Of a stretch of 64,000 nucleotides of DNA, positions 1,808 to 19,275 are shown one piece after another. The stretch is from Candidatus Poribacteria bacterium (GTDB lineage Bacteria; Poribacteria; WGA-4E; PCPOR2b). The notes below the pieces were generated by a model that did no database searches, was not told the DNA's origin, and was given only the letters and a program-made list of their open reading frames with translations. The number at the start of each line of letters is the position of its first letter. The first letter of the stretch is position 1. Position numbers and translations under genes: made by a program. The stretch spans positions 4,416,001-4,480,000 of the forward strand of contig OZ220744.1 of the NCBI GenBank assembly GCA_965116925.1. The letters run 5' to 3'.

Positions 1808-2040
1808 ATACGGTGCTCTAGATAAATGACGGTGGACGATTTCTCAATATGGGTAGGAAATAATAAAATTATAATGAAAATTAACCGCAGAGACACAGAG
1901 AACACAGAGCAAAATTTTGTTATGTTTCTCCAAGTCTCTGCGTTAAATTCAGAAAGGTTTGTCGCAATTTATTGTGCAATGAGAGGAAAAACTGGGACAT
2001 CTACCGGTTTGATTTCTGTGGCGGTCATGTTACGTATGGC

Positions 2041-2382
2041 TTAACCGACTGCCGCAGCGACGATGAGTCCCAATGCGATGATTACACCGGCAACAGCAAT
2101 TCCCGCCGCCGTGTTGTTATCTTCGGCGATCTGATGATCGAGGTCAAAGGGGGTAACCAAGTCGAAAATTTTATAGCCAACCATCAGAACAATCACTCCG
2201 ACGATGCTAAAAATAACGCTTTCGATGACAAGCAGCGCAAGATGCTTGAAATCAATGAACACCGCGTTTGCTGCCGCGGCTTCACCTGTTGCCTGTGCAT
2301 CGGCTGGCGTTGACCACATTGATGCAGCAACGATACATCCAATCGCGATACAAAAACTGAGCAGCACAATTTTCTTCGCCAT
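2041..2382 (-). CDS. DUF350-like small membrane protein
   Basis: FDLVTPFDLDHQIAEDNNTAAGI motif; AAGGAGAG RBS before MAKKIV (ORF track starts at 2454). Confidence 0.75.
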   Translation of the reverse strand: MAKKIVLLSFCIAIGCIVAASMWSTPADAQATGEAAAANAVFIDFKHLALLVIESVIFSIVGVIVLMVGYKIFDLVTPFDLDHQIAEDNNTAAGIAVAGVIIALGLIVAAAVG

Positions 2383-2509
2383 TTGTTCTCTCCTTTTGAT
2401 CTTCGTTTGGGGTACAGAATCTCGAAACCTCGTAACAGGTTGACACTCTATCATAGTGTTACGTTCAAAATCAATAGAAAAATTAAGAGCGTATGGGTAA
2501 CACGCAGAG

Positions 2510-3549
2510 CTATCCTTTCACGATTTCTGCACGAACAAAGTGATAGCCGACCGCCCCGGCGGGATCTGCATCGAAGCCTGTTTCCTTTTGTGTCAGTCCA
2601 TCATTGGCGATGGCTCTAGCGGAGATCTCCACCTCCCCCGGATTGTCGGGCACCTGCCACCTATATTTCCAGAGATACCATGCCAACGGTGAGTCACTCC
2701 CCCAAATGTCCGCTGCCTCCCACGTGCTAACATCATCGACACTGGTGGTGATGCCGTCATCGATGCTCACTTCGACCCGCTCAATCCCTCCATGGTTTCC
2801 GCTGTCAAAGGCGGCACCGCTGATTGTATATGTCCCACCAGCTTGAAGAACCTGGTCATTACTAGGTGTACCGATTAGGGTTGCCAGTTTGACGCGGGCA
2901 ACGGGGTCCCAACCTTTTCTTCCCAATACCCCACGTGCGATTCCGCCAACATGATGTTCATGATCCATTTCGGATTCTTTGTGCCGTAGTGACCGGGATT
3001 GAGCAGCCGGACCGGGAAACCGTGGTCGGCCGGGAGAGGTTCGCCATTCATTTTATATGCCAAGAGCACCTCCTCACGGAGGGCGCGATCTATCGGGATC
3101 GCGGTATGATAACCGTCGGCACAGCGGAATACGACAACCTTTGCCTCCGCCTTGACCCCTGCCTTATCAAGGACATTTCGTAGGGGTACACCGGTCCACA
3201 TCGCATTACTCATCTGTTCTGCACCGATTGGATCGCCGATGCACTTGAGTGTCCGCATCGTCGTCACGGATTCCATGCCTGTTATATCTTCGTAATTCAA
3301 CATAATCGGTTGAGGTTTTTCAACCAATCCCGTTATCCCCATCCTCCAGTGTTCAGCCTTGAGAACCGGCACCTGATCAATCTGAAGGACATAAAACTTG
3401 CCCTTTGGTGTAATCATTGATGCCGGTTTGAGTATCTCTTTAGGGATGTCGTTTTCAGCAGGCAGAGAACGGAGCGGCAGCGTTAAACCCCCTACGCTCA
3501 CTGCGGCGACTCGAATGAATTTTCTGCGGTTCATGGTCTTCTCCATCAT
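2510..3549 (-). pseudogene. Tat-exported sulfite-oxidase-family molybdoenzyme, split by a single-base frameshift near 2913-2918
   Basis: NRRKF Tat motif, Mo-ligand LKCIG, HGFPVRL..PG.YG.K.PKW in 2875-3549; GYWEEK continues as GWDPVA plus dimerisation domain in another frame. Confidence 0.8.
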
Positions 3550-3576
3550 TATTATTTATTTGGCAAGGAGTCTTAT

Positions 3577-4905
3577 TCACTCACCTGTCACTTGGGGCGA
3601 AGTCAAGCGTTCAAGTGCCGATACCACATCAGGGTCATCGAATAAAATCTGGTTGAGCTCACGAAGATGTTCCCGCGCTACATTCACATTCCCAACCTTT
3701 TCATTCGCAAGAACAAGGTTATACTTTGCATCAAGTAGGTTCGCATCTGCTTCTAGCGCACTTTCAAAAGCCTGAATTGCTAGATTAAGTTTGTTCATTG
3801 TCATGTATAACGTGCCCAGATTGCAGTGTGGAATTGCAGGTTTCTCGGAATGTTTAATCGCAAGTTCAAATTCGCCTTGGGCGCGCTCGTCATCTTCAAT
3901 AATCAGGTAGATAAAGCCGAGGTTGTTATGTAGGCTGCCGTTCTTTGGTGCTGATCTGATTCCCTGTCGCAGCGTTGAACGCGCCTGATCTAATTCGTTG
4001 CGCTTAAAATGGATAATTGCTCGTTGATTCAGCAGATCTGGACTATTGGGCTGCTTTGCTAGTTCAGATTGGATCTCCTTAAGTTCGGCTTCATAGCCGG
4101 TCTTGGGCAGAACGGTGTGTGCTAATGTTGGGATGCGAAATTCTGCACCAAGTTTCAAAGCGTACTGGGGTGGGCGTATGCCGTTATATCGCGCCAATTG
4201 CTGCCAATCTCGATATTTTTTTGGAAAAATCCGATTTTCGTATGCCCGAACGAAATTATAGAGTGTATCCCCTTGGGAGATTTCAGCTCGAATATCGGTA
4301 TACTTTCGCACTGGATACCGCCCAATAAGTAGCCGTGGATCCGGCTCAGGAATCGGAATTGTTAGCACGGCTTCGGTCGGTGGCGTCGTGGGTGTTAAAA
4401 CCTCTGGCGCAGATGAGGTTTCGGCTGTCAGTGTCACAGGTGCTGAAACCTCTGCGGTAGATGAGGTTTCGACTGTCGATGCTTCTGGTGCTGAAACGTC
4501 TGGAGTCGGTGTAGTTTCAACTGTTGGTGCTGCCGGTGTTGAGGTCTCTGGCTTCGACGTAGTTTCAGCTGTCGATGTCGCGGGTGTTGAAGTTTCAAGC
4601 GGAACAGCTGTCTGTTTCGGTTGTTTAATTTGGGCAAACTGGATCTGTTTGACTTGGGTAGACAATAAATCGAAAGAGTCTGTTAATGTCTGCGACACTG
4701 AGATCCAAGGGACAGCATAGATTAGGAGTGCGATCAGGCTGATGCCCACAATCATCCCTATTATTAGGGCGGCTTGATTTGTTGATCGGGGTTGCGGAGA
4801 AGCGTTTATCTGTACCGGCAATGGGGGGAAGGGCAACACACCGATCTCATTTTGTTTGTGGTTACTTACTCTATCTTTTTTCACAGGCTCCCTCCAATAT
4901 AACAT
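3577..4905 (-). CDS. Membrane-anchored protein with Thr/Ser/Pro/Glu linker, LysM-like domain and TPR repeats
   Basis: One TM helix, ETS/TP-rich repeats, ISQGDTL..LARYN..LKLG..RIP, TPR motifs (HNNLG, CNLG, YNL); likely GTG start at 4884. Confidence 0.8.
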   Translation of the reverse strand: MLYWREPVKKDRVSNHKQNEIGVLPFPPLPVQINASPQPRSTNQAALIIGMIVGISLIALLIYAVPWISVSQTLTDSFDLLSTQVKQIQFAQIKQPKQTAVPLETSTPATSTAETTSKPETSTPAAPTVETTPTPDVSAPEASTVETSSTAEVSAPVTLTAETSSAPEVLTPTTPPTEAVLTIPIPEPDPRLLIGRYPVRKYTDIRAEISQGDTLYNFVRAYENRIFPKKYRDWQQLARYNGIRPPQYALKLGAEFRIPTLAHTVLPKTGYEAELKEIQSELAKQPNSPDLLNQRAIIHFKRNELDQARSTLRQGIRSAPKNGSLHNNLGFIYLIIEDDERAQGEFELAIKHSEKPAIPHCNLGTLYMTMNKLNLAIQAFESALEADANLLDAKYNLVLANEKVGNVNVAREHLRELNQILFDDPDVVSALERLTSPQVTGE

Positions 4906-5018
4906 CTGCTAGATTATAGCAACCGCTAGTATGGGTGTCAAGAACTTTCATGTCATTTTTAGGGGCGTTTAGCCTTCGGCTTTTTAACCATTTTGTTTGA
5001 AAAGTTGTAACCGGAGAA

Positions 5019-5327
5019 TCGCACCGGTTTGGAGTGTCTCATTAATTCTAAGATCCACTATAAATTATAATCCCAATCTGCAATCAACAATAAGAATCCC
5101 AACGATAAGATGAAGATAAAATGTAATTGTTTGTAACTGTTTGTAATACGATTGATGGGCATGACGAAGCATTTCATGCTGAAATAGGGACAATTTTCCC
5201 ATTTGCGCGGGAAAATTGGGAAAATTTGATTTTCGCAGGCGAAACGTAACCTTTTTAATCTCACTCATGCTACCTTAACACCTCATCTTTTAACTGCGTA
5301 AGTCCTATTATTTATGAATTCACTATA
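5019..5327. mobile_element. Cluster of degenerate MITE/IS ends
   Basis: 5031-5062 is an inverted match to the left end of 56628-56735; 5311-5327 matches its right end; TGCGTAAGTCCTA at 5295-5307. Confidence 0.65.
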
Positions 5328-5350
5328 AATGCCCCTATCTCATTTTTCCA

Positions 5351-5380
5351 TTGACAATTTGGAGGTGGATGGTGTATCTT
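5351..5380 (+). promoter_or_regulatory. Putative sigma70 promoter of the ffh operon
   Basis: TTGACA-N18-TATCTT. Confidence 0.5.
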
Positions 5381-5479
5381 AATTGATTCGCAAACCTGTT
5401 CTTATGCAGATGGAGGTCAGGAACGCACTCAGGGGTTCATCTGGGTTTTACCCATTATGTCTCAGGCAAAGGAAATATC

Positions 5480-6886
5480 ATGTTTGAAAGTTTATCGGGC
5501 AAGTTGCAAGGGGTTCTCAAATCGCTACGCGGTCAAGGCAAACTGACCGAGAAAAACATATCTGATGCACTCCGGGAGGTTCGTCTCGCATTGCTTGAGG
5601 CGGATGTGGATTACAAAACCGTCCGTGAATTTATCAACGGTGTCAGGGAAAGATCTCTCGGTCAGGCGGTGCTCGGTAGCTTCACCTCAGATCTTCAGAT
5701 AGCGAAGATTATCGGCGATGAGCTCACAAAACTGATGGGAGAGGAAGCAGCACCGGTCACTATAGCACCAAGTGGTCCAACAATCATTATGATGGTTGGT
5801 CTACAGGGTGGTGGGAAAACGACAGCTTCAGCCAAACTTGCGCTGAGATTCAAATCAGAGGGTCGAAATCCCCTTTTGGTTGCAGCAGATATCTATCGTC
5901 CAGCGGCTATTAAGCAGCTGCAAGTGCTTGGTGAACAGATTGATGTGCCTGTGTTCTCAATGGGAACTGAGGTCTCTCCTGCGACCATCATTCAAGCTGC
6001 TGTCAAGCAGTCGTTGAATCGTGGGAATAATTTTGTGATCATTGACACAGCCGGCCGGTTACATGTTGATGAAGCACTGATGGATGAATTGCGGGAGGTT
6101 AAGTCCGCCGTCAATCCGACCGAAATTTTACTCGTTGTTGATGCGATGACCGGTCAAGATGCGGTCAATGTTGCCCAGCATTTTAATGATAACTTGGACA
6201 TTGATGGTGTTATCCTGACCAAGTTGGATGGTGATGCACGTGGCGGCGCAGCACTGTCTATTCGTTCCGTAACGCAGAAACCGATCAAGTTTGTTGGCGT
6301 TGGAGAGAAGATCGATGCGACAACATTGGAGGAATTCCATCCGGATCGGATGGCGTCTCGGATACTTGGAGAAGGGGACTTTGCAACCCTGATTGAAAGG
6401 GCTGAATCTGTTTTTAGCCAAGATCAAGCCGACGAATTAGAGCGTAAGCTGCTTGAACAGGAGGGGTTAGATTTCAATGATTTGTTGATGCAGCTTGAAC
6501 AGATCAAGAACATGGGACCATTGGACCAACTTGTCGAGATGATTCCCGGCGTCAATAAGCTTCCGATGAAAAACATGCAGGTTGACGAATCGCAGTTGAA
6601 ATATACGAAAGCGATGATTCAGTCAATGACGCCGATGGAGCGCCGGAATTCGCGTCCCCTTGATAGCAGTCGTCGGTTGCGCATTGCCAAGGGAAGCGGT
6701 ACAACCGTTCGCCAAGTCAATCAATTGGTTGATCAGCTCAAATTTATGAACCGCATGATGCAGCAACACCCGATGGTGGACGTGCCGCAACTTGGTGGTG
6801 GTGGTTCGGTTGCACTTAAAGGGAAACCTGCACTTAAAGGAAAACCAAAGAAACGTAGAAAAAGGAAAAGACGTAAATCACGCTAA
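5480..6886 (+). CDS. ffh: Signal recognition particle protein
   Basis: GLQGGGKTT, DTAGR, TKLDGDARGG, Met-rich M domain with RIAKGSG. Confidence 0.98.
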   Translation: MFESLSGKLQGVLKSLRGQGKLTEKNISDALREVRLALLEADVDYKTVREFINGVRERSLGQAVLGSFTSDLQIAKIIGDELTKLMGEEAAPVTIAPSGPTIIMMVGLQGGGKTTASAKLALRFKSEGRNPLLVAADIYRPAAIKQLQVLGEQIDVPVFSMGTEVSPATIIQAAVKQSLNRGNNFVIIDTAGRLHVDEALMDELREVKSAVNPTEILLVVDAMTGQDAVNVAQHFNDNLDIDGVILTKLDGDARGGAALSIRSVTQKPIKFVGVGEKIDATTLEEFHPDRMASRILGEGDFATLIERAESVFSQDQADELERKLLEQEGLDFNDLLMQLEQIKNMGPLDQLVEMIPGVNKLPMKNMQVDESQLKYTKAMIQSMTPMERRNSRPLDSSRRLRIAKGSGTTVRQVNQLVDQLKFMNRMMQQHPMVDVPQLGGGGSVALKGKPALKGKPKKRRKRKRRKSR

Positions 6887-6906
6887 GTTTGGAGCACGGT
6901 TTATTT

Positions 6907-6944
6907 TATGAGTAGGGAACAACGATCGTTGTTCCCTACTCATA
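6907..6944. repeat. Perfect 38-bp palindrome (GTAG-type REP)
   Basis: TATGAGTAGGGAACAACGA|TCGTTGTTCCCTACTCATA; related copies at 37711-37738 and 49635-49662. Confidence 0.9.
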
Positions 6945-6975
6945 GAAAAGGTTCTTACGAAATAGGAGGTAACAT

Positions 6976-7347
6976 TTGGCAGTACGAATTAGACTTCAGC
7001 GGCATGGAAAGAAAAGACGTCCTTTTTATCGGCTGGTGGCCGTTGACTCTCGAAGTCAAAGAGATGGACGTTTTATTGAGCGGATTGGGCATTATGATCC
7101 GATGACCGATCCGGCAAACATCGTAATTGACGCGGAAAAAGCATTAAAATGGTTGAGAACTGGTGCACAACCTTCTGACACAGCCAAGGATCTCATGTCA
7201 AAAGTTGGTGTTTGGGAACAGTTCATAAACGAAAAAGAGGGCCAGCCCACCTCAACTTTAGAAACACAGTCAACGCCTGCTTCAGAAGAAGGTTCCGAGG
7301 CAGCAGCATCCGCTTCTGCTGAAGAATCCGCAGAAGAAGCAAATTAA
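6976..7347 (+). CDS. rpsP: 30S ribosomal protein S16
   Basis: MAVRIRLQRHGKKRRPFYR..GAQPSDT; AGGAGG RBS, TTG start. Confidence 0.98.
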   Translation: MAVRIRLQRHGKKRRPFYRLVAVDSRSQRDGRFIERIGHYDPMTDPANIVIDAEKALKWLRTGAQPSDTAKDLMSKVGVWEQFINEKEGQPTSTLETQSTPASEEGSEAAASASAEESAEEAN

Positions 7348-7357
7348 TGTCTCGCGT

Positions 7358-7431
7358 ACAGACTTACGCACTTCAGCACAGTTGATGCGGGAAACCAGAT
7401 GCCCCGCCTACAGTTGGCTGCGTGGGTCCTA
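7358..7431. mobile_element. MITE-like element of the TAGGACTTACGCA family
   Basis: GACTTACGCA...TGCGTGGGTCCTA; shares AGATGCCCCGCCTACAGTT with 23331-23442. Confidence 0.7.
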
Positions 7432-7463
7432 TTAGTGTAAAATTGCGTTTTTAGGGGGATCCT

Positions 7464-7715
7464 ATGCTCAAGGATTTGATTGAATATCTCGCAAAATCCC
7501 TCGTTGATTACCCAGATCAGGTCAGCGTCAACGAAGTCGAAGGTAACACTGTGACTATTCTCGAACTGAGCGTTGTCCCTGAAGATTTAGGAAAAGTCAT
7601 TGGGAAACAGGGGCGCACAGCCAAGGCAATGCGATCTCTGCTACTTGCTGCGGGAGTCAAAGCACGTAAAAAGGCAATACTTGAGATTGTCGAACACCGT
7701 CAAGCGGTAGAGTAA
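7464..7715 (+). CDS. khpA: KH-domain RNA-binding protein (YlqC/KhpA)
   Basis: LVDYPDQV, DLGKVIGKQGRTA; conserved position after rpsP. Confidence 0.93.
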   Translation: MLKDLIEYLAKSLVDYPDQVSVNEVEGNTVTILELSVVPEDLGKVIGKQGRTAKAMRSLLLAAGVKARKKAILEIVEHRQAVE

Positions 7716-7747
7716 GCATTTGGAATCCTACCGGCTCACTATAACGA

Positions 7748-8170
7748 ATGAGTGGGAGAGATATGGCTGTTATTGTCAAAAGACCTGTGATTTTGAAAAA
7801 TATTGTGACCGCTGCCTTCAAGGAGCAACTCACGCAGGAGTTAGAACACACGATTCGCCAGATTGAAACATGGCTGCAGCAAGAGGAGTTCCAAAGTCGA
7901 CGTTTGATTGCGGAAGCGCAAAAGCGAGATCCACGTCATGTAAATCAGTTGCGTGAAGAGATTCACCAAGAACGCGAAAAACAGGAGCAGGTGAAAAGCA
8001 ATCTCAGCCAGAAGTTAGCGCAGGTTAAGCAACTGGAGATCGATACCCTTTTTACCAGCGGAACGTATGATGCGCCTGTCAAAATTGAGGTAGGGGATGA
8101 CATCCGCGCCAAACTGTCTCAGGCAGAAATTATCGTCAAAGATGGAGTTGTCGTCCAGGTCATTGAATGA
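7748..8170 (+). CDS. YlqD family protein
   Basis: [16 protein letters not shown], coiled coil, EIIVKDGVV; ylqD position in operon. Confidence 0.8.
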
Positions 8171-8910
8171 GAATTGACATCATTACCATTTTTCCAGAGG
8201 TCATCCTGCCGGTATTGCAAGCTGGCATCTTGAGGCGTGCACAAGCGAGAGACATATTGGCAGTCAATGTTTACAACCTGCGCGACTTTACGACAGACCG
8301 CCACCAAACAGTTGATGACTACCCTTACGGGGGCGGCGCAGGCATGATTTTGAAACCGGAGCCGCTTTTCGCCGCGATCAGGGCACTGCATCCAGAATCA
8401 ACTGCGCGTGTTATTTACCTGACCCCACAAGGAACTCCCTTTAACCAGTCATGTGCTGAAGCCCTTTCTCTTGAAGCGCATCTAATCTTGATTTGTGGAC
8501 GCTACAAGGGCATTGATGAACGGGTACGAATGAAGCTAGTCACAGACGAGATTTCTATCGGTGATTATGTCCTCAGCGGTGGAGAAATTCCAGCACTGGT
8601 GCTCGTTGATGCGATTGGTCGAGTTTTGCCGCGGGCGTTGGGCAATTACGAATCAGCACAGGAGGATTCATTTAGCCAAGGCTTATTGGATTGTCCACAT
8701 TATACACGCCCTGCTGAGTTTGAGGGAATGAAGGTCCCCGATATTCTGTTGAGTGGGCACCATGAAAACATTACGCACTGGCAACACGAACAGTCTCTCA
8801 AGCGGACGGCTGAACGTCGTCCAGACTTGCTCGAAAACGTTGAGCTTTCGGCTGAAGATATTGCCTATCTAAAGTCTCGGAAGAATTCAGACATAAAGAG
8901 TCATGCGTAA
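8167..8910 (+). CDS. trmD: tRNA (guanine37-N1)-methyltransferase
   Basis: [29 protein letters not shown]. Confidence 0.98.
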
Positions 8911-9031
8911 AAGGTGAAGACCGGAAAACGGGACATGAAGCCACCTCGTTTTCTTAATATTCCCTATCTCCTGCTTATATCATGGGCAGTGTCAAGGCTA
9001 TAAACACCCGAATGAAAGGAGGAATCAAACA

Positions 9032-9391
9032 ATGAATCTTATTGAATCTGTTGAGAGCGAATATACGAAAACCGATATTCCTGACTTTGGGCCCGGGGAT
9101 CTCGTGCGGGTCAATACCCGTATCCGAGAGGGTTCAAAAGAACGTATCCAAGCCTATGAAGGAACGGTCATTCGACGATCTAACGGTGGGTTGAGTGAGA
9201 CATTTACCGTCCGTCGTGTTGCTTATGGCGAAGGGAGTGAAAGGACCTTTCCGGCGCATTCACCAAATATTGAAAGTATCCAAATTATTCGATACGGTGC
9301 CATCCGCCGAGCAAAACTGTACTACTTACGAGATCGAACCGGAAAAGGTATACGAATCCGTGAAAGGCGGCAAACCACCGATAACGCATAG
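9032..9391 (+). CDS. rplS: 50S ribosomal protein L19
   Basis: [23 protein letters not shown]. Confidence 0.98.
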
Positions 9392-9995
9392 AGGGAACTA
9401 TCCAGCGGAAATACAACAGTTTGAACAAACCTTACGACAGCAGGGCTATCAGCGTATCGCGGGGATTGACGAGGCTGGACGAGGCGCATTAGCGGGTCCT
9501 GTTGTCGCAGCAGCGGTTGTTCTTCCTATCAATTGTCAGATTTCAGGTGTGACAGACTCAAAACAGCTGACTCCTAAACGGCGGGCTGAACTGTTCGACG
9601 AGATCTACCGCACAGCTGTGGCGGTGGGTGTGGGTCGTGTTGATAATGAGGAGATTGATCGAATCAATATTCTCCAAGCCACAATGGGTGCGATGGCTCA
9701 AGCTATTACACAAATCACACCTGCCCCGGATTACGCCCTTGTGGATGGTACACATCTTCCTGAAATCTCTTTACTCGCCGAAGCAATTCCAAAGGGCGAT
9801 ACTCTTATCCAGTCTATTGCCGCCGCCTCGATTATTGCAAAAGTCACGCGAGATCGCCTGATGATAGCACTCGATGAAACCTATCCGGGCTACGGTTTCC
9901 CAGTCCACAAAGGATACGGTACACTTCTGCATCGTCAGGCAATCGCCCAACTTGGACCTTGCCCTATCCATCGGCGCAGCTTTAAGCTACAGTAA
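9360..9995 (+). CDS. rnhB: Ribonuclease HII
   Basis: [37 protein letters not shown]; start uncertain (in-frame GTG at 9360 overlaps rplS). Confidence 0.95.
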
Positions 9996-9996
9996 G

Positions 9997-10377
9997 ATGA
10001 GCGATTCCAGAATTAAGGTGGGAAAGATCGGCGAAGCCCTTGCCATCGAACACTTCAAAGCGCGAGGGTATCAAATTCGCGCTCAGAACTATCGCACGCG
10101 TTCAGGTGAGATTGACCTTATCGTTCAACGCGGAAAACGGGTTGTGTTCGTTGAAGTCAAGACGCGGCGGAGCAGCAAATTCGGCATACCACAAGCGGCT
10201 GTTACCCCCACCAAACAGAGGCAAATCTCTAAGATTGCGCTGAGTTATCTGCAAACGCACAAGCTCTTAGATGTCCCCTGCCAATTCGACGTTGTTGCAA
10301 TTGTCCTGTCTTGGAATTTTGAGCTAATCAAACTTCAGCACATTGAAAATGCGTTTGCGTTCTGTGCTGATGGATGA
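9997..10377 (+). CDS. YraN/UPF0102 family putative endonuclease
   Basis: GEALA, GEIDLI, FVEVKTR, FDVVAI. Confidence 0.92.
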   Translation: MSDSRIKVGKIGEALAIEHFKARGYQIRAQNYRTRSGEIDLIVQRGKRVVFVEVKTRRSSKFGIPQAAVTPTKQRQISKIALSYLQTHKLLDVPCQFDVVAIVLSWNFELIKLQHIENAFAFCADG

Positions 10378-10400
10378 TGAACCCTAACAATTTCGGAAAC

Positions 10401-11261
10401 CTATTTCGTGCCTAAACTGGATAGTATATTCCGAAGGTAAACGGCATCCTCTTCCGCCCACTGCTCCAGATTCGGCGGGGTGGTCTCCGCATATCCTACC
10501 TGACGAATAATCGATTCATCGAAGCGGTACTCCGTATGCACCGTTAGGGGACCATCAAAGCCGCTTTCGCACAGAAGCCCCAAATAACGCCCCCAATCGA
10601 CACCCCCGTCTCCCATTTTTACGAAACAGGGAACATAAGGGGGAGTATGATCCGGCTGCGAGAGGTAGAGGGCATCTTTAATTCCGACAACGGACAGATA
10701 ATCTCCGATCATCGCCAACCCCATTGCCCAATCCTCACCATCAAGAAGAAGGTGACCGGGATCGGGATAGGCACCGACGTGCTGCGGATCAAAACCTCTA
10801 ATGAGGTGCATCAGTCCTGCACAGTTTGATCCAATACAGGCTCCGCTATGAATCTGATAGCAGGTTTGTACCCCATATTTCTCACTAAACGCGCTAAACC
10901 CCTCAAGTTCCCTACGCGCAGCATCAATCACCTGCCAATAATCGTCTCCCTCGTTAAACCGCCAGAATCCGATTTTGAGGCGCGGGATGCCCGCTTCTGC
11001 ACACGCAGCGTATAGCCCCTCCACCTCTGGCGCATTCGGATTTGTTATATCCGTCGCTGCTGTAGCCAATGGACAGGTGAGGTTTTGCCCACCCCAGACC
11101 TTCATCGCTTTGGGGAGTTCTTTAATTACGTTGTCAACGTGGATAGGGTGTCCCGGACGGACACAGATATCCACCCCATCGTAGCCGAGTTCAATAGTTT
11201 TCTCACCAAGTTGTTCGACAGATAGCTCCGTAAAGAATTTAGAATTGAGTACGATTTCCAT
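10401..11261 (-). CDS. Sugar phosphate isomerase/epimerase (xylose-isomerase-like TIM barrel)
   Basis: GYDGVDI, DPGH, IKDA, GDGGVDW, GFDGPLTVHTE. Confidence 0.8.
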   Translation of the reverse strand: MEIVLNSKFFTELSVEQLGEKTIELGYDGVDICVRPGHPIHVDNVIKELPKAMKVWGGQNLTCPLATAATDITNPNAPEVEGLYAACAEAGIPRLKIGFWRFNEGDDYWQVIDAARRELEGFSAFSEKYGVQTCYQIHSGACIGSNCAGLMHLIRGFDPQHVGAYPDPGHLLLDGEDWAMGLAMIGDYLSVVGIKDALYLSQPDHTPPYVPCFVKMGDGGVDWGRYLGLLCESGFDGPLTVHTEYRFDESIIRQVGYAETTPPNLEQWAEEDAVYLRNILSSLGTK

Positions 11262-11331
11262 TTAGACTTCCTCCTGACCGAGGTATTGAAGATTCATTCG
11301 TTTTCGGTTAGACCTAATGTGCTTTGCCCTT

Positions 11332-11396
11332 CGCTCCAGAGGAGCGATATATCTATAGAACGTTGATAGGTCCGATACCTGCGCTCCAGAGGAGCG
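11332..11396. repeat. REP doublet CGCTCCAGAGGAGCG x2 (50-bp period)
   Basis: Copies at 11332-11346 and 11382-11396; related to the doublet at 17861-17932. Confidence 0.8.
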
Positions 11397-11451
11397 CAAT
11401 ATATATGTATAGCAGCTGTCAGCGGATTGGATTTCTATGATCTAAGTCGAT

Positions 11452-13026
11452 CTAATCGTGGTTGAAATGCTTGCCCGGAAGATACTTAATTTCTAACTCA
11501 ACATCGCGGACGTAACACTGAGGGGTTACATCAGGATCGCGTTCTAGTAGCATAACTTCAAGGACGTTGTTCCCTTTTTGGGGCCAGTGGCTTGGGTTAA
11601 GCCGGTAGATGAACCAGTAGCCTGAACCGGTGCGGTAACGCGGTGCCCGCATCCGGTACATCTCGTTGATTTTGCACAGCAGATGGGTCGGTAACTCCAC
11701 ACCGTTGAGTTGAAAGCGCAGCTGGTCGTTTTCGGTGGTGTTCATGATTCGCACGCGCAGGAGAACCTCGTGGACTCTGCCCACCTGCTCCCACCGAGGA
11801 AGGTCATCGCTGATTGTCAGTGCCAACTGGACGGGTACGTTTACCTCTAAGTCGGCAGGCAGTTGCGATGTGAGTTCCGGACTCGAAAAGCGACCGGCTA
11901 CTGTGGGGATATGATAGAATTTATCCTTGGGTGCCATAATATCCGGATGTGGCAACTCTCGGAGTTTTTCGTAGAACGAAGCCTCATAGGGCCAATTTGT
12001 GAACCACTGACTGATGTAGAGTCCATCAATGCCTTGTGCCCAGTAATTACAAGCCGCGGCGCGGATCATTTCAATTGACGCTTCACCCAAACGGTCAGAG
12101 TCTACATTGCTATCAATAGCAGCATGGATGCGGCACTCTGTCCCTTTGGCAGACTCCACCAAGAAACGGAGGTCATCAAGGAGGGGTGCTTCATAGGTCA
12201 GGGAAGTGCCGTTGGGATCGCGCAGCTCAGGTCTTGCAAGTGCTTGGGCGATGAGAACATCCACGATGCCTTGCTGCATCCATTCCTGTGGGTCCAACCC
12301 GCGAGACAAACAGGTCTCGACATTCGATGGGATGCTGATTGCCAATTCCCGCTCGGAGCCACTCTCCTTTACTGTTGCATAGACCTTTTTAATCCACTCG
12401 GTCATGATTTGACGACCCTCCTCCACTTCATCTGGGTGGAAGTAGTGGGGCCAGAAATTGAATTGGAGCTCGAATCCATCGACTTCATAGTTGGTCAGCA
12501 CCTCTGAGATGAGCGCGAATCGTTCATCACGGACAGCTTGGTGCATGAAATCGGCGCAGTGGATACCGGGGAAATCAGGGTCTATGTTACCCGTCGCGCC
12601 AATCTCCAGATGCTTATTATCCAATCGAAAATCCGAGCTGCGAATATCGTACCCCGGTCCCCCTCGCTCGCCGCTCTCTAGCTGCATCAGCAGGGTGGGA
12701 TAGAACAGTAATCCCACATCGTGGGCACGGTCACAGATTATCCGCAAAGGATCGTTACCTTCTTGGATTAAGTGCAGCGCGTTTTGGTATGTCCGACGAA
12801 AGATGAGATGGTTCCATTTTTGGACATTGTGCCCCCATAGCTCACCGACCTCCGTATCATGTAGGACTGTTCGCCCGTCCCCCAAGCAGAACATCAGTGC
12901 CTCAACGGGAGTGCCAGCTAGCTCATCAACTGCTGCCTCGCACTCCTCTTTCTGCATCGCAGGCTCGTACATGTAAAGAAGCGGATGCCGTCCATCGTGG
13001 TAGAACATGATGCGTGGTTTTTGCAT
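11452..13026 (-). CDS. Putative glycoside-hydrolase-like TIM-barrel protein (GHL10-like) with C-terminal beta domain
   Basis: DF.HQAVRD, YEVDGFELQF, GLDPQEW..VDVL, GIDGLY. Confidence 0.55.
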   Translation of the reverse strand: MQKPRIMFYHDGRHPLLYMYEPAMQKEECEAAVDELAGTPVEALMFCLGDGRTVLHDTEVGELWGHNVQKWNHLIFRRTYQNALHLIQEGNDPLRIICDRAHDVGLLFYPTLLMQLESGERGGPGYDIRSSDFRLDNKHLEIGATGNIDPDFPGIHCADFMHQAVRDERFALISEVLTNYEVDGFELQFNFWPHYFHPDEVEEGRQIMTEWIKKVYATVKESGSERELAISIPSNVETCLSRGLDPQEWMQQGIVDVLIAQALARPELRDPNGTSLTYEAPLLDDLRFLVESAKGTECRIHAAIDSNVDSDRLGEASIEMIRAAACNYWAQGIDGLYISQWFTNWPYEASFYEKLRELPHPDIMAPKDKFYHIPTVAGRFSSPELTSQLPADLEVNVPVQLALTISDDLPRWEQVGRVHEVLLRVRIMNTTENDQLRFQLNGVELPTHLLCKINEMYRMRAPRYRTGSGYWFIYRLNPSHWPQKGNNVLEVMLLERDPDVTPQCYVRDVELEIKYLPGKHFNHD

Positions 13027-13459
13027 GGCGGATTCCTTTGTTTGAGATAACTGATTTTGGGGTCATGATTATGGATTCCTATTTTGCCACGAGATTCTTC
13101 TGAAAGTCAAGAAGATACTCGTATCAGATTAGAGGAATTGTATCTATATTGTCTGAATCGCGGATTCGGCGGATTGAACGGATTACACGGATAAAAGACT
13201 GCTTCGACAACCCCGATAAATCGGGCTGCAAAGCCATCTGAATCACAACTTAAACTGATGATATTATTTCGGCAGTTGGGTTTATGAGCACCCCTCAAAT
13301 GAATAGCCCTATGTATCACTTTCTTTTAGGTTCTCTTTTCTGACTGATTCTTGCTATAATTTACTTTACTGTTGGTGGAAGACAAGGTGGAATCAAATTT
13401 GAAGGAATACAGCACTATTGGTGAGGATGTTAAATTACATGGGTGAAAGGAGTGTTATC

Positions 13460-14866
13460 ATGATCGATCAGCAGTACCTTCTCAATGACGAAGGGGTACA
13501 GAACTTCATTAAGAATGGGTATATCACAGTCCATCCTGATTTACCCGACCTCCATGAAGAAATCTACCGAGAGACTGCAGCAATCTTTGAGAAAGAGGGA
13601 GATCCGCGGAATCATATCCTTCAAAAAGTTCCTGCGCTGCATCAGGTTTTTGCCCATCCGACTGTTCGGGGTGTCTTGACTAGTCTTCTGGGACCGAATT
13701 ACATGATGCACCCACACCGTCACGCACATATGAAGCAGCCGGGACAAAAGGGCGGTGCTTGGCATCAGGACGGTAGATCGAAACATTTCACGACGAAGGA
13801 TCATGGATGGCTTTTTGAATGGAGGCGACACCATCGGTTTCGGTCTGTTTGGGCATGGTATTATCCGCAGGAGGTCACTGAGGATATGGGACCGACGGCG
13901 GTTATACCGGGGGTGCAGTACTACGATTTGGAAAGTATGCGGCACTACAACAATGCCTACAGCGATCCGGAGATTGGTGCGCTGCTTTGTGGAAAGGCGG
14001 GCACGATAACGATTGGTCATTACCATCAGTGGCACAGCAGTTGGGGAACGAATCACAGCAACAAGAATCGGTACATGATCAAGTTTCTCCTCACCCGCAC
14101 GGAAGAGCCGCAACAGCCCTCTTGGAATGCAAATGGCATTACCTCAACAGTGGTCAGCGAAGCACCGACGCCCGGTCAGGAAGCGGTGTGGAACCATGTA
14201 TGGGGTTGGTTAAATGGAGGGGATGACGCGATGGCAAGAAATGGGGGCAGGAATGGCAATCACATCTCTGAGTTGACTGGTATGTTGCGTGATGCCTCTG
14301 CGCCCGTTCGTCTGAACGCCGTTTATGCCCTCGGTGCGGTTGGTGAGTCTGCGGTCGATCCGCTGATAGAAACACTACGGGGGGCTGCTGAACCCGTTGA
14401 GATTACGGAGGAGCCTATCCTGACCCACGCAGCGTATGCCTTGAGCGCAATCGGGGCAGCCGCTGTTCCTGGACTAACTTCTGTGTTGAACAGCGATACG
14501 GCGTGGTGGGTACGTGCGACCGCAGCGGATACCTTAGGAGACATCGGTCAACCGGCTGCGGAGGCGGTTCCCACGTTGATTCAGGCTCTCAATGATCCGT
14601 CCGAGTGGGTCCGTCGCAATGCGGTGAATGCACTAGGGACTATTGGTGAAGGGACAGAGGCGTTGATAACGGCTTTGAAGGATGACCATCCGTTGGTTCG
14701 CTGCAATGCGGTGAATGCGTTAGCTCGGAGGTGTAAAGGGACCGATGAAAGCATTGACGCCGCTAGCCGTGCATTATCAACGGTGATGTATGACGACGAG
14801 TACGCTATCATCCGCGAGTACGCGATTGCTGCGTTAGAAGAGATAGATTCACACGTTCGCAATTAA
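13460..14866 (+). CDS. Phytanoyl-CoA dioxygenase-family domain fused to HEAT/PBS-lyase repeats
   Basis: WHQD (HxD), GPTAVIPG, distal His; repeated VR..A..ALG; AAAGGAG RBS. Confidence 0.85.
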   Translation: MIDQQYLLNDEGVQNFIKNGYITVHPDLPDLHEEIYRETAAIFEKEGDPRNHILQKVPALHQVFAHPTVRGVLTSLLGPNYMMHPHRHAHMKQPGQKGGAWHQDGRSKHFTTKDHGWLFEWRRHHRFRSVWAWYYPQEVTEDMGPTAVIPGVQYYDLESMRHYNNAYSDPEIGALLCGKAGTITIGHYHQWHSSWGTNHSNKNRYMIKFLLTRTEEPQQPSWNANGITSTVVSEAPTPGQEAVWNHVWGWLNGGDDAMARNGGRNGNHISELTGMLRDASAPVRLNAVYALGAVGESAVDPLIETLRGAAEPVEITEEPILTHAAYALSAIGAAAVPGLTSVLNSDTAWWVRATAADTLGDIGQPAAEAVPTLIQALNDPSEWVRRNAVNALGTIGEGTEALITALKDDHPLVRCNAVNALARRCKGTDESIDAASRALSTVMYDDEYAIIREYAIAALEEIDSHVRN

Positions 14867-15665: not shown

Positions 15666-17300
15666 TCAAAACATGGAAAAGTCGATTTCCTTTGCTGTGA
15701 TAAATTCCAATAAGGTTGGAACCCCTTCCTCTGTTTTCTGGATTCCGCGTTTGATGGCAGGTATAATCTGGTCAGGGGTTTCCACCCGCTCACCGTAGCC
15801 ACCGAATGCCTTTGCCATGTCAGCGTAGTTTCCGGATATATCTGTGCTGCGGTATTTCTCAGTGGAAAGCTGCATAATCGGCAATTCAATTGCCATGGAG
15901 AAGTTGTTGAACAGGACTGACAGGATGGGGATACCCGCTCTGACAGCGGTCTCGAAATCCATGCCGGTGAAACCGATGGCAGCATCCCCCCAGATGTTGA
16001 CGCACAGCTTGTTTGGCTCCGCCAACTTCGCGCCCATCATCAGTCCAAGTCCATATCCCAGTTGCGTGGTTTTGCCCCAGCCGATATAGGAGAGCGGCGT
16101 GGTCGATTCCCAGAAGGGTGAAAGTTGGTCGCGCGGACTTCCGGCGTCGTGGGTGATGATGGTGTTTGCCACATCCACAGTGGCCATCAGATCCCGAATT
16201 ACCCGGTAGGGGGAGAGGGGAACCTCGTCAGAGGTTAGTTTGGGATTCCACTGTGATAGCCATTCCTGCCTGACCGTTTGAATCTCCTGTGTCACACTTT
16301 CACGGCGGCCTCGTGGGGTGCCGTTTAGACGCCCGCGAATTTCATCGACTAACGCCTCCAGTGTCAGTCGAGCGTCCCCAATCAAAGCATGTTCCACGGC
16401 TACATCTTTGTTGAGATCCGCCGCATCCAACGTGGCATGAATAATTGTTTTGCCTTTTGGTATGGTTGGTGCGTAGTTGGTGATGCTGAAGCTGCACCCA
16501 ATCCCGAAAATGACATCTGCATTTTGCAGGAAGTGGTGCACAGGTTTCGGCAGGGATCGACCACCGGAGCCGAGGGACAGGGGATGGTTTTCAGGGAAAG
16601 CACTCTTGCCGCCGAGACTGGTGGTCGTGGGTGCCTCCAAGAGCTCCGCGAGTTCTCTTAAAGCGTCCCACCCTTTGGCGTAGTGGACACCTTGACCTGC
16701 GTATAGCACGGGTCGTTCCGCCTCCAGCAAGACGCTGGCAATCTTTGGAATCTCATTCGGGTCTGGTGCGGTGCCCGAAACCGGGGCGGGTTGGTAGTTC
16801 AAGGGTTCAGACAGTTCCTCCGGTAATACATCGTTGGGAAATTCCACCAACGCCGGACGCGGTCTGCCGTTCTTTACCTGAGTAAAGGCGCGTCTCAGGG
16901 CATCGGGTGCTGCCTGCGGTAGGATGACCTGCTCGCAGGACTTGGTAACATTCTGGAAGTTGAGGAAGGAATTGAAGTTGGGAGGAACATTGGTCAAGGA
17001 ACGCGAATAGCCCATTGGCAATACCACGATTGGCACTGAGTCGCCATAAGCCTGCGCGACGCCACCGAAGGCGTTTTCCGAGCCGGGACCGCTCTGCATA
17101 CAAAACACCCCGATCCGTTCGCCGGACGATACACGACTAAACGCATCTGCCATGTGAAGCCCGATACGTTCTTGACGGACGATGATTGGGCGGATTCCTA
17201 CGGCGGCAGCGGCATCGATGATTGGATTGACCGGATAGGCAAATAGGTATTCCACACCTTCTGCCTTCAAAATGTGAGCAACAGCATCAGCAACTTTCAT
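15666..17300 (-). CDS. Thiamine-pyrophosphate-dependent enzyme (acetolactate-synthase-like superfamily)
   Basis: VRQER..MAD, GDAA..N TPP motif; true start MKVADAV at 17300 (the ORF-track extension runs through an insertion). Confidence 0.9.
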   Translation of the reverse strand: MKVADAVAHILKAEGVEYLFAYPVNPIIDAAAAVGIRPIIVRQERIGLHMADAFSRVSSGERIGVFCMQSGPGSENAFGGVAQAYGDSVPIVVLPMGYSRSLTNVPPNFNSFLNFQNVTKSCEQVILPQAAPDALRRAFTQVKNGRPRPALVEFPNDVLPEELSEPLNYQPAPVSGTAPDPNEIPKIASVLLEAERPVLYAGQGVHYAKGWDALRELAELLEAPTTTSLGGKSAFPENHPLSLGSGGRSLPKPVHHFLQNADVIFGIGCSFSITNYAPTIPKGKTIIHATLDAADLNKDVAVEHALIGDARLTLEALVDEIRGRLNGTPRGRRESVTQEIQTVRQEWLSQWNPKLTSDEVPLSPYRVIRDLMATVDVANTIITHDAGSPRDQLSPFWESTTPLSYIGWGKTTQLGYGLGLMMGAKLAEPNKLCVNIWGDAAIGFTGMDFETAVRAGIPILSVLFNNFSMAIELPIMQLSTEKYRSTDISGNYADMAKAFGGYGERVETPDQIIPAIKRGIQKTEEGVPTLLEFITAKEIDFSMF

Positions 17301-17692
17301 CAAATCTTCGCAGTGGAGACCCCGTTCTTTAGAGCGGGGAGGAAACTGCGCTCCTTTTTTGTTGTTTTTGGAATCTACCTTACACTTTTTAGGTAGATTT
17401 GTGAGAGAATAATGCTCGTAACTCGATGACTTAGGAGAAACGCTCGTTTTTCGCTGCCCTCTCCCTTCGATGGGAAAGGTAAAATTGCGTAGGCAAAGCC
17501 TACCAAGCAGTATGTCTGAGGTTTCACCCGGAAGTCGAAACAATTTCGTCACCGACGGATTGCAACGGCTTCTAAACGGTTGCTGCGACCGTGCGGTGGC
17601 GGGTGTGTAAAGTTACGAGCCAAGACCGCGTATCCCAATAAGACCCGTTGGACGGACAAACAAGCCCCCTCCTTCAGGGCGGGGTAGCTGAC
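17301..17692 (+). mobile_element. Non-autonomous IS200/IS605-type element without a recognisable protein gene
   Basis: Target TTCAT, guide GAGA and hairpin CCCCGTTCT-TT-AGAGCGGGG at left; guide CAAG, hairpin GCCCC..GGGGT and terminal TGAC at right; removal restores AAGGAGACTTT-ATG. Confidence 0.85.
17414..17692 (+). ncRNA. Candidate large structured RNA (omegaRNA-like) inside the element
   Basis: Nested pairings GCTCGTAACT/AGTTACGAGC, CACCCG/CGGGTG, GTCACCG/CGGTGGC, ACGG/CCGT, GCAAC/GTTGC, GTAGGC/GCCTAC. Confidence 0.5.
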
Positions 17693-17761
17693 AAAGTCTC
17701 CTTATTTTCAAAATGGGTTTATTTTAGAGAATTATACAATTCTAGTTTGAATACTAACCTT

Positions 17762-17996
17762 TGGTGCTAGTTTAGTGAGAAAGTTTTTTTCACATTGTTC
17801 AAGTCACTTTGGATCCCAATTTATCGGGGAGTCGGTTGGTTGATTCATTCTTTCGGATACACATGTCGCCCCGCTGGGGCTTTAGGGTATTTGTTTATCC
17901 GTATACTATAAACATGTCGCCCCGCTGGGGCTAAATAAACCTAATGAATCGACAGTTTTCACGTTTCACGTTATCAACAGCTGCAAACTAGCACCA
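17762..17996. mobile_element. 235-bp MITE-like unit with 12-bp terminal inverted repeats enclosing a REP doublet
   Basis: TGGTGCTAGTTT...AAACTAGCACCA; ACATGTCGCCCCGCTGGGGCT at 17861 and 17912. Confidence 0.7.
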
Positions 17997-18003
17997 TTGA
18001 TCA

Positions 18004-19275
18004 TTAAGTCCCCTTGATTTTTCCGCTCGCGTTGGGCAAGGGAGACTGTGGATGCATCGCTCGCGCCCTCGCCCGGAAGTCTAGCCCTTTTTGACCCAAT
18101 GCTTGCAATTCCTCTGGGCTGCCGTCAAACCATTCCTTTAGGCGGCGGCGGGCGATGTGGACGTGCAACACCTCGTCTGCCCAATCGAAGTCTTGAAGGG
18201 TTGTCATCAGGGGATGACGAGCGGCATCGCGGCAGAACTCGAACTCTTCGCGCTTGCCGGGTGGATATTTCATGAGACCGGCTTCGACGCCGAAGAGCAT
18301 GGCGTATAACTCCAGAGGATCCATCTTGAAGAGATAGGCAGACTCCCAATCGCGGATCGGCATCGCAGAACGCTCATCGAAAATATCTTCTGCCGCTGCC
18401 TCACCGAAGACGGAATGGCGCATCTCATCCCAGAGGTGACGGGAAATATCGGCGTAAAATTCCCACGGATGCCCTTTCATTTCGTACAGCACAAATCCCA
18501 ACGCTTCGGCAATCGTGGTTTCTCCGAGGCGGGTCGCAATCATCTGCATCAATCGCTCTTCTACCCGCTCATTGTCAACATGGATAATATCCCAAACACG
18601 CGGAAAGGTATCATCACGGGTGAGTTGTTTCGGAATCAGATATGGGGTAGTCGCTCGAACGGATTTCAGCGCATTAAGATTCACTTCGCCTGTGCCATCA
18701 ATGCCTCCGGCAGCTGCAAGCAGGTTATGAAGTGTCTCGCTCCAAGTCTCCGCTTCTGCTTCTTTTTTCGACGTATCAACGACATCGTGGTAGGCGGTTT
18801 CTAGCAGACCCAAGCCTTCCTCTACTTCGGCGATGACGGTTTTCAGGATACGCACAGTGGGATAGTCAGCCAAACCGTTGGTTTCGCCGACATACCTTTG
18901 GTATGCCTCCAGAAGCGCGGGTTTGAACACTTTTGCCAGTGCTGCCAGCAGTTCGACACTGTTTGCCGTATACATCGCTTCATCGAACACGATTTGCAAG
19001 GACGCATCGGGTGCTTGATACGCTTTTTTCTTAGAGACGCGCAGTTCAGGCAGTCGGGCTTTGAACTGAGACGCGTGCTGCGAGTTTTCATACTGAAGTC
19101 TTGCTAACAACACCTTGACATCTCGCTCCGGTGTGCTGATGATGTGGGCCGCTTGTAGAAACATCAATCGTTCTGCCGCGTAGGCGAATCGATGGATTCG
19201 GGCGGCGCATTGATCGACGCTGAGTCCACCCTGTGTTGCATTGTGCAAGCCAGCGTATTGATAAGTTTGATTCAT
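18004..19275 (-). CDS. Ferritin-like diiron-carboxylate protein (DUF455-like)
   Basis: WDEMRH and ADEVLH ExxH motifs, degenerate ENSQH; ATGA overlap with ribokinase. Confidence 0.65.
   Translation of the reverse strand: MNQTYQYAGLHNATQGGLSVDQCAARIHRFAYAAERLMFLQAAHIISTPERDVKVLLARLQYENSQHASQFKARLPELRVSKKKAYQAPDASLQIVFDEAMYTANSVELLAALAKVFKPALLEAYQRYVGETNGLADYPTVRILKTVIAEVEEGLGLLETAYHDVVDTSKKEAEAETWSETLHNLLAAAGGIDGTGEVNLNALKSVRATTPYLIPKQLTRDDTFPRVWDIIHVDNERVEERLMQMIATRLGETTIAEALGFVLYEMKGHPWEFYADISRHLWDEMRHSVFGEAAAEDIFDERSAMPIRDWESAYLFKMDPLELYAMLFGVEAGLMKYPPGKREEFEFCRDAARHPLMTTLQDFDWADEVLHVHIARRRLKEWFDGSPEELQALGQKGLDFRARARAMHPQSPLPNASGKIKGT

Follow-up and report, generated by a model that had tools for sequence, protein, structure and literature searches.

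A gene-less IS200/IS605 derivative at start codons of Poribacteria that probably carries a stand-alone omegaRNA gene

Introduction

Within a 64,000-nt stretch of the genome of a Candidatus Poribacteria bacterium (the whole stretch is called the window, its 6.47 Mb source genome G000), a 392-bp insert separates the gene of a thiamine-pyrophosphate (TPP) enzyme from its ribosome-binding site and directly abuts the ATG. No protein gene was found within the insert; its longest internal open reading frames (ORFs) reach 36-50 aa and were not compared with protein libraries. The locus raises the question of what such an insert carries and how it is tolerated in front of a gene. A sequence-only reading of the window, made without database searches, had described it as an IS200/IS605-type mini-element with a large structured RNA, to be understood either as a stand-alone omegaRNA acting in trans or as a non-coding RNA passenger mobilised by the transposase TnpA.

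Here, the insert was compared with its copies, with related genomes and with RNA libraries. We conclude, with a probability of roughly 0.75, that it is a gene-less, ISDra2-like derivative of the IS200/IS605 group, i.e. a palindrome-associated transposable element (PATE), with a stand-alone omegaRNA gene whose product is used in trans by the TnpB of sibling elements. The homology of its 3' part to tnpB elements, a TnpB of the same family, an empty allele, covariation and the depth in RNA libraries all support the first of the two earlier proposals over the passenger. That TnpB binds the RNA, cleaves with it and acts in trans is suggested by sequence comparison.

Results

Homology to tnpB elements of the same genome

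Four copies of the mini-element (hereafter the mini) are present in G000: besides that of the window, a second one is 99% identical (G000:C1:4161432-4161823) and two more are about 75% identical. The same genome harbors nine tnpB-only elements of about 1.4 kb, which have only the first 64-69 and the last 54 bases in common with the mini (1-69, 344-397). When a profile of the mini RNA was used in nhmmer, its positions 138-262 aligned with the last ~150 nt of these nine elements (E 2e-14 to 5e-12). The alignment begins within the codons for ...NIKKAAVA, so that about 25 former codons are included, and no counterpart of the 5' ~135 nt of the mini RNA was found in the tnpB elements. The earlier statement that the interior is not a recognisable tnpB remnant thus holds for the 5' half of the RNA but fails for the last ~125 nt.

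In the ISDra2 omegaRNA, the counterparts of P8, P9 and the right-end hairpin (loop UUCA) are stems 1, 2 and 4, respectively. The position of stem 3 is taken by the 3' strands of Px and P1, which indicates that the additional 5' domain is plugged into the place of stem 3. As expected of an omegaRNA, it occupies the right end on the tnpB strand, its structure ends at 17692 and the guide would be drawn from the flank.

The 1.4-kb elements carry a single gene, encoding a TnpB with OrfB_IS605, TNB and HTH domains (Pfam). Comparison with the ISDra2 TnpB structures 8h1j and 8bf8 gave an E-value of 3e-59, and the motifs GVDVG, AVENL and RDHNAA aligned with the catalytic D/E/D sites; as judged by these motifs, the cognate TnpB is catalytically intact. 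Members of this TnpB family (E<=1e-60) occur in 15 of 20 genomes of the genus, and the two genomes richest in minis have 26 and 28 matches. For G000, 26 TNB-domain and 5 Y1_Tnp matches were counted.

Structure of the RNA

For 21 diverse copies, RNAalifold detected compensatory changes at 26 of 56 pairs. In a hand-built, pseudoknotted model 92.3% of the cells were paired, compared to 36-44% when the partners were slid by 1-3 columns; changes on both sides were seen at 30 of 68 pairs, and none of 500 shuffles attained any of the five measures. The model consists of P1, six local helices, Px (CACCC/GGGUG, with three of five pairs covarying) and P9 (GCGGU/ACCGC). As P9 crosses P1 and Px, the RNA is pseudoknotted. 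The inner seven pairs of P1 are retained in 18-21 of the 21 copies, and one pair changes from A-U to G-C in two copies. The covariation agrees with the multibranch fold, closed by a 10-bp helix around nested stems, that had been drawn from the window alone.

Many of the G-U pairs would be C-A on the opposite strand, for example 146-189 (GU 15, GC 5) and 412-421 (UG 12, CG 9), and because of these frequent G-U pairs the structure is assigned to the plus strand; pair counts over the copies thereby confirm what the wobbles of the window had suggested. As a single sequence the element folds only modestly better than its shuffles (z -3.4 for the plus and -3.0 for the minus strand). The TGn-type -10 box that had been noticed just upstream of the structure is present and kept by relatives in two forms (Table 1). 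In a consensus two-hexamer scan no full sigma-70 site was found on either strand, and no minus-strand promoter could be named.

Abundance in RNA libraries

RNA data were available as contigs from four metatranscriptome runs of a single study on a sponge microbiome; these contigs leave some parts of the stretch uncovered. The k-mer depth was 1176-14696 over 17465-17668, compared to 6-10 over the host gene and 3-8 over the next gene, placing the element 100-1000 times above its neighbours. This excess is hard to explain by copy number alone. In three of the runs the depth rises to its high level between 17414 and 17479; in the fourth a single contig begins at 17305. The strand and the exact ends of the transcript given here are predicted ones.

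These data also bear on the idea that the conserved pairing serves the single-stranded DNA form in TnpA transposition and not an RNA. IS200/IS605 elements do move as single-stranded DNA with folded ends, and G-T pairs form in DNA. However, TnpA needs only the subterminal hairpins, and just those are shared by PATEs of 117-150 bp and by the tnpB elements; moreover, a promoter-like box lies at the 5' edge of the structure and the RNA depth exceeds that of the neighbours as described above. We consider a role in the DNA form very improbable.

Empty site and predicted guide

In 11 of 11 orthologues of the host gene within the genus (93-97% identity) Shine-Dalgarno sequence and start codon are uninterrupted (AAGGAGAyyyT|ATG). 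The upstream sequence of the orthologues, ...AATAAGGAGAyyyT ATGAAAGTT, equals the right flank of the window joined to its left flank, and therefore the insertion took place after TTCAT, between Shine-Dalgarno sequence and start codon, without duplication. Insertion after a motif and without duplication is typical of IS200/IS605 elements. The empty allele TTCAT|AAAGTCTCC, which the sequence-only reading had predicted, is what all eleven orthologues contain. Further copies and empty sites, for which it had advised a search, were both found.

Other insertions of G000 are likewise absent elsewhere: the flanks of the copy at L003 abut in at least four other genomes (G008, G014, G018 and G005), and the site of the copy at L004 is also unoccupied in other species. 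Ancient, fixed insertions in G000 were rejected on these grounds. The 99% identical second copy and the species-specific insertion sites imply, as far as sequences can tell, that the element moved recently.

The predicted guide (Table 1) holds CTCCTT (17698-17703), the reverse complement of the Shine-Dalgarno sequence AAGGAG of the host gene. One contig of RNA run X3 extends to 17701.

Proposed mechanism and observations against it

In the mechanism that we propose, a self-contained RNA gene would have replaced tnpB. A plus-strand RNA of ~280 nt would start from a TGn -10 promoter that follows the hairpin of the left end and a T-run, and would run through the right end into the flank. Its 3' ~125 nt would represent the omegaRNA core of the family, while the conserved 5' domain of ~135 nt would pair through P1 and Px into the loop closed by stem 2. 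The TnpB of the 1.4-kb siblings would most likely take up this RNA in trans. With TTCAT as transposon-adjacent motif and AAAGUCUCCUUAUUUU as guide, the empty allele would be cut after excision and the element copied back, resulting in homing or retention. Since the mini keeps the two subterminal hairpin ends, a Y1 TnpA would have to be supplied in trans for movement.

Several observations weigh against this interpretation. The tail pseudoknot with the loop of stem 1, which defines TnpB/Cas12 guides, was not confirmed, as there are two candidate partners and both are invariant. A search of the whole 64-kb window with Rfam gave no match at gathering score, including the HEARO, IS605-orfB and RAGATH models against which a comparison had been recommended; in E-value mode (E<=10) seven weak matches appeared, among them no IS605-orfB, no RAGATH and no intron family. 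HEARO scored 11.8 bits on the minus strand (gathering score 83 bits) and sot0042 9.8 bits over the hairpin only (gathering score 88). No Y1 TnpA was found in an element with these ends, neither at the 5 TnpA places of G000 nor at 30 TnpA loci of the genus, one of which is an autonomous tnpA-tnpB element of unrelated type; the proposed search for tnpA/tnpB elements with the same ends thus yielded the nine tnpB elements but no tnpA. The RNA contigs give no information on strand or ends, merge copies as well as strains, and may include carried-over DNA. Finally, a family TnpB at E<=1e-60 is missing from genomes G001 and G013, although both contain minis.

The last observation would suit an RNA that acts alone or with a partner other than TnpB, in which the 5' domain is functional and the omegaRNA-like 3' part merely an inherited end. 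The 5' ~135 nt, for which the tnpB elements offer no counterpart, are nevertheless the best conserved part and covary strongly, and for the ISDra2 omegaRNA the 5' half is reported to be dispensable (PMC10097598). Yet P1, Px and the P9 pseudoknot connect the 5' domain with the omegaRNA core, no adjacent protein gene travels with the mini, and the copy numbers of mini and family TnpB rise together in G002 and G004. We regard this explanation as quite improbable and retain the omegaRNA used by TnpB. A reading as IscB/HEARO RNA was rejected, as the guide would be on the wrong side and the 11.8 bits were obtained on the wrong strand.

Limits and ends of the element

Limits were set by aligning the four copies within G000, plus 34 copies from relatives. 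The four-copy alignment shows TTCAT or TTCAC at the left limit and ...GTAG(C/T)TGAC at the right limit; in the window the right terminus reads ...GTAGCTGAC. Both ends could be placed for 56 of 77 distinct copies, on which the census of insertion sites rests. The left motif in these is TTCAT in 38, CTCAT in 12, TTCAC in 3, ATCAT in 2 and GTCAT in 1.

As in other PATEs, subterminal imperfect palindromes are found at both ends on the same strand, terminal inverted repeats are lacking, and insertion on the 3' side of a target motif leaves no target duplication and a seamless empty site. In 34 copies both end hairpins are retained with compensatory changes, the right-end helix being 96% paired, and the outer stem of the left end covaries over 49 left-end variants (CGCAGU/ACUGCG, CGGGAU/AUCCCG, CGGUAU/AUACCG). 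The 392-bp unit with two subterminal hairpins was therefore described correctly from the window alone, all positions that had been assigned match the sequence, and the GAGA and CAAG tetranucleotides stand where they had been placed.

In IS608, a short DNA guide on the 5' side of each hairpin recognises the cleavage site (TTAC/AAAG, TCAA/GAAT). For the mini, two-sided changes lend such a rule some support. On the left, all four minis with TCAC have GAAG, and on the right, L051 and L053, which belong to another family, have CAAT/TGAA in place of CAAG/TGAC. The change events are few, and one tnpB element, with TCAT and GAAG, breaks the rule.

Table 1. Features at the insertion, in positions of the window
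Feature	Position	Strand	Remarks
Host gene, thiamine-pyrophosphate enzyme, 544 aa	15666-17300	-	TPP_enzyme_N/M/C domains
Target / transposon-adjacent motif TTCAT	17296-17300	+	its final CAT is the host-gene ATG on the opposite strand
Mini-element (non-autonomous IS200/IS605, PATE)	17301-17692	+	392 bp; limits from copy alignments
Left-end extended hairpin	17309-17350	+	outer stem CGCAGT (17309-17314) / ACTGCG (17345-17350) around inner hairpin
Putative left DNA guide GAGA	17316-17319	+	
Left inner hairpin	17320-17339	+	arms CCCCGTTC/GAGCGGGG
CTCC and T-run	17351-17360	+	plus strand: terminator-like hairpin tail; bottom strand: Shine-Dalgarno-like AAAAAAGGAG (putative function), immediately 5' of the hairpin, which together with 8 nt separates it from the host AUG
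Extended -10-like box TGA-GAGAAT	17402-17410	+	TGATAGAAT or TGGTAAAAT in relatives
Structured RNA scaffold, ~280 nt	17414-17692	+	P1, P2, P5, invariant UGUCUGAGGUUUC, Px, P6/P7, P8, P9, P10, right-end hairpin
P1 long-range helix	17414-17423 / 17611-17620	+	perfect 10-mer complement
3' part, omegaRNA core	17568-17692 (limits approximate)	+	homologous to tnpB-element 3' ends
Right end	17661-17692	+	putative guide CAAG 17661-17664, hairpin 17664-17684, tail TAGCTGAC with cleavage site TGAC
Predicted 16-nt guide AAAGTCTCCTTATTTT	17693-17708	+	putative use as guide

Copies and distribution

Matches were found in 31 of 61 related genomes, among them 18 of the 19 other genomes of the genus, and at least 77 distinct copies of the mini were collected from about a dozen genomes. 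The core motif occurs at 65 places among 185,579 species genomes, all 65 in metagenome-assembled genomes of Candidatus Poribacteria, and most of these places fall in two genomes with about 20 and at least 35 copies. Another family of the same order has a shorter version that lacks P6/P7.

Such numbers bear on the question whether the mini is simply a decaying, functionless deletion remnant of a tnpB element. Its 3' end, including the former codons, does derive from a tnpB element. A remnant would, however, be at odds with the covarying pairs, the invariant single-stranded motifs, indels that are confined to hairpin tips, and the number of copies; this explanation is extremely improbable. Copies differ by the gain or loss of entire hairpins at the tips of helices, irrespective of reading frame.

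Variants of the element were also noted. At L051 (1283-1612) and L053, both from the other family, the mini measures 331 bp, has diverged end hairpins (CCCAAG.../...CTTGGG) and ends in CTGAA; its RNA retains GUCUGAGGUU, P8, P9 and the P1 strand and has no P6/P7. Tiny PATEs of ~117-270 bp with both ends and no RNA core are located at L044 (about 1410-1557), L047 (about 1441-1555), L112 and L113. At L005 (1501-1584) a lone left end (bases 1-84, 90% identical) adjoins a 409-aa frame with an internal 'MTNNF' start and looks like the relic of an element that is missing its right part. Secondary inserts of 60-90 nt are present within the loop of the left-end hairpin at L073, L038 and L077, and eight copies (L032, L062, L065, L066, L069, L072, L074, L078) have a 24-nt hairpin, GTTTCTTAATCCCGAyTTrTCGGGG, directly before the right-end hairpin.

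Other mobile elements were seen in the same genomes. At about 57971-58168 the window holds another TnpB gene (G000:C1:4473971-4474168), the best of the 26 TNB matches, which lies in a 383-aa frame and belongs to a different element family. In a genus relative, an autonomous element of an unrelated IS605 family encodes TnpA (137 aa) and TnpB (385 aa; L192, 1453-3023), which shows that the genus does possess canonical Y1 transposases. The gene of the best Y1 transposase of G000 (136 aa; L099, 1900-2450) is followed by tandem repeats of ~240 bp with identical 93-aa frames, which suggests a setting associated with repetitive extragenic palindromic (REP) sequences, similar to that of REP-associated tyrosine transposases. 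To the right of the mini, at 17855-18010 of the window, two GC-rich hairpin repeats (ACATGTCGCCCCGCTGGGGCT...) look REP-type as well; their depth in the RNA libraries is 59-273, well above the neighbouring genes, and one contig form skips 17803-17959.

Insertion at start codons

On the opposite strand, TTCAT and TTCAC become ATGAA and GTGAA, which would account for the location at start codons. The junction codon, ATG or GTG on that strand, opens a long ORF in 38 of the 56 copies, and in 37 of the 56 the complement of a Shine-Dalgarno sequence follows 2-14 nt into the right flank, compared to a background of 14% (84,458 candidate sites). By crude ORF-based gene calls the candidate sites of G000 comprise 1,720 start-codon, 12,053 non-coding and 70,719 coding ones. 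The start-codon share expected from these is 12.5% of the tolerated sites (p 1e-21) or 2.0% of all sites (p 8e-51). The remaining 18 copies include six at a distance of 11-27 nt from a gene start and one that opens a 78-codon ORF; only about three are situated inside a long reading frame or at its end. A Shine-Dalgarno-like right flank was found for 24 of 32 minis, compared to 10 of 29 elements without the RNA core (Fisher p 0.002).

Among the host genes are those of ribosomal protein S4, PurQ, lipoyl synthase (LipA), RibB, ThiE, TonB, SurA, LolA, glutamine synthetase (GlnA) and HtrA. The S4 gene of G019 (rpsD) sits behind rpsK and is the sole S4 match in that 95%-complete genome. The insertions at ThiE and TonB are common to G002 and G004. 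At TonB both flanks are 99% identical between the two genomes and the elements about 95%; at ThiE the left flanks are 100% and the elements about 97% identical, and the right flanks match except for 23 extra nt in one of them. As the host genes are often indispensable, S4 even being the only copy, and as the ThiE and TonB insertions are shared, the insertion can hardly abolish expression.

Such a location invites the explanation that the RNA mainly controls the host gene, its tail lying in cis-antisense over the Shine-Dalgarno sequence, with insertion acting as a switch that silences or tunes the gene and seamless excision restoring expression. The RNA reads over the complement of the host Shine-Dalgarno sequence in 37 of 56 copies, it is very abundant, and insertion and excision are scarless. 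On the other hand, the hosts are unrelated and include an only-copy rpsD that cannot be switched off; the scaffold is conserved and covarying, and not the tail; the homology to the 3' ends of tnpB elements indicates a guide RNA; and a switch would serve equally well inside genes, where copies are rare. We judge such a switch improbable and maintain that the RNA is most likely an omegaRNA.

Discussion

If insertions at start codons do not silence the genes behind them, it has to be asked what the left end supplies. In most of the 49 left-end variants, the strand that is sense for the host contains an A-run, a box AAGGAGG, AAGAGG or AAGGAG, the extended hairpin, 8-9 nt of AAGAUUU(U)G, and the host AUG. 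Our tentative explanation, to which we would give somewhat less than even odds, is that copies of the family are inserted, or persist, mainly at start codons, where they may be tolerated even in front of essential genes because the left end supplies a Shine-Dalgarno sequence near the host AUG. The left-end hairpin would bring the bottom-strand box within 8-9 nt of the AUG, and the native Shine-Dalgarno sequence could be replaced without silencing the host gene. Rather doubtful is the further picture of the mini as a start-codon-seeking guest with a ribosome site of its own that is harmless and at the same time irremovable. A mini wedged before rpsD, lolA, ribB or thiE could not be lost through sloppy deletion, and a guide RNA covering the ribosome site of the host itself would punish precise excision. 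If true, the mini would exemplify a novel means by which a transposon becomes harmless and irremovable at once.

The portable ribosome site is offered as a hypothesis because three features of the left and right ends speak against it: the box can be sequestered by pairing of GGAGG with CCUCC, the wobble pairs within the left-end stem speak for the plus strand, and to incoming host transcripts the right end would look like a terminator hairpin. Moreover, the null model for start codons uses the crude gene calls, and the copies, though counted as independent insertions, come from few and related genomes.

Other ways of maintaining translation were considered. An in-frame N-terminal extension of the host proteins was rejected, since the median open extension is 26 codons, the frames vary by left-end variant and many hosts start with signal peptides. 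An end-to-end helix that brings the host Shine-Dalgarno sequence near the AUG was rejected too; seven of eight minimum-energy folds span the element, but they do so with different, mostly host-derived bases, and no conserved device emerged. Little weight is given to translational coupling via a mini-ORF that ends at the invariable TG|ATG junction. In two subfamilies the mini-ORFs MGFPLRRF or MLKQGVSIPKI end there, none of them with a Shine-Dalgarno box, and in the subfamily of the window no start codon exists in that frame.

Among the literature matches listed no description of a start-codon insertion habit of such elements was found, and no literature joining Poribacteria and TnpB. We see three novelties in the Poribacteria mini: an enlarged, pseudoknotted guide RNA with its own promoter, the abundance of this RNA, and a start-codon habit that reaches essential genes. 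Stand-alone guide-RNA transposons indicate that guide and nuclease can travel apart, a step from transposon RNAs toward CRISPR arrays. Here an omegaRNA freed from the overlapping tnpB gained a conserved domain, which bears on the limits of guide-RNA evolution and on the engineering of ISDra2-type editors. The very high RNA level in sponge-microbiome libraries and an insertion pattern centred on start codons, essential genes included, are of interest in their own right. Should the left end lend a ribosome site, this would explain how single-strand transposons colonise dense genomes free of cost, and it would constitute a natural portable module for translation initiation.

As a kind, the stand-alone omegaRNA PATE is already in print. 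PATEs are reported to encode, in many cases, omegaRNAs that TnpB must use in trans (Meers et al., 2023, 10.1101/2023.03.14.532601). These PATEs resemble the Poribacteria mini in being gene-less, in keeping both ends and the guide-RNA region, and in relying on TnpA and TnpB from elsewhere. Compared with them, the mini adds its own promoter with an upstream T-run, a pseudoknotted 5' domain of 135 nt and a pronounced location at start codons, and it is so far limited to Poribacteria (65/65).

A relative with known structures is the TnpB-omegaRNA complex of ISDra2 from Deinococcus radiodurans (8h1j, 8exa), with which the mini family shares a close TnpB homologue and a pentamer target (TTCAT compared to TTGAT). 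According to the corresponding study (PMC10097598), the ISDra2 omegaRNA has a functional scaffold of 116 nt, with stem 1, a stem 2 that encloses stem 3, a stem 4 and a pseudoknot, while its 5' 115 nt are dispensable. Its stem 3 is dispensable as well. Both RNAs have a guide 3' of the right end, a core of ~116-125 nt with stems 1 and 2, and a terminal hairpin with a U-rich tetraloop. In contrast to ISDra2, the mini RNA is not overlapped by tnpB, and the place of stem 3 is held by strands that pair with a long 5' domain.

Two further systems invite comparison. Genes 38 and 25 of phage T4 have split ribosome sites, in which a hairpin brings a distant Shine-Dalgarno sequence beside the AUG. By analogy, the host-sense left end of the mini offers a Shine-Dalgarno box, a stable hairpin, a short spacer and an AUG; unlike in T4, the arrangement would ride on a transposon end and be lent to whichever gene lies behind it. 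IStrons, reported to be IS605-type elements fused to a group I intron (10.1101/2023.11.20.567912), are likewise relatives of IS200/IS605 elements that sit in or at genes with little harm through a built-in RNA device. Different from these, the mini gave no match to a group I intron, its structured strand is antisense to the host, and its copies are located before genes and not within them.

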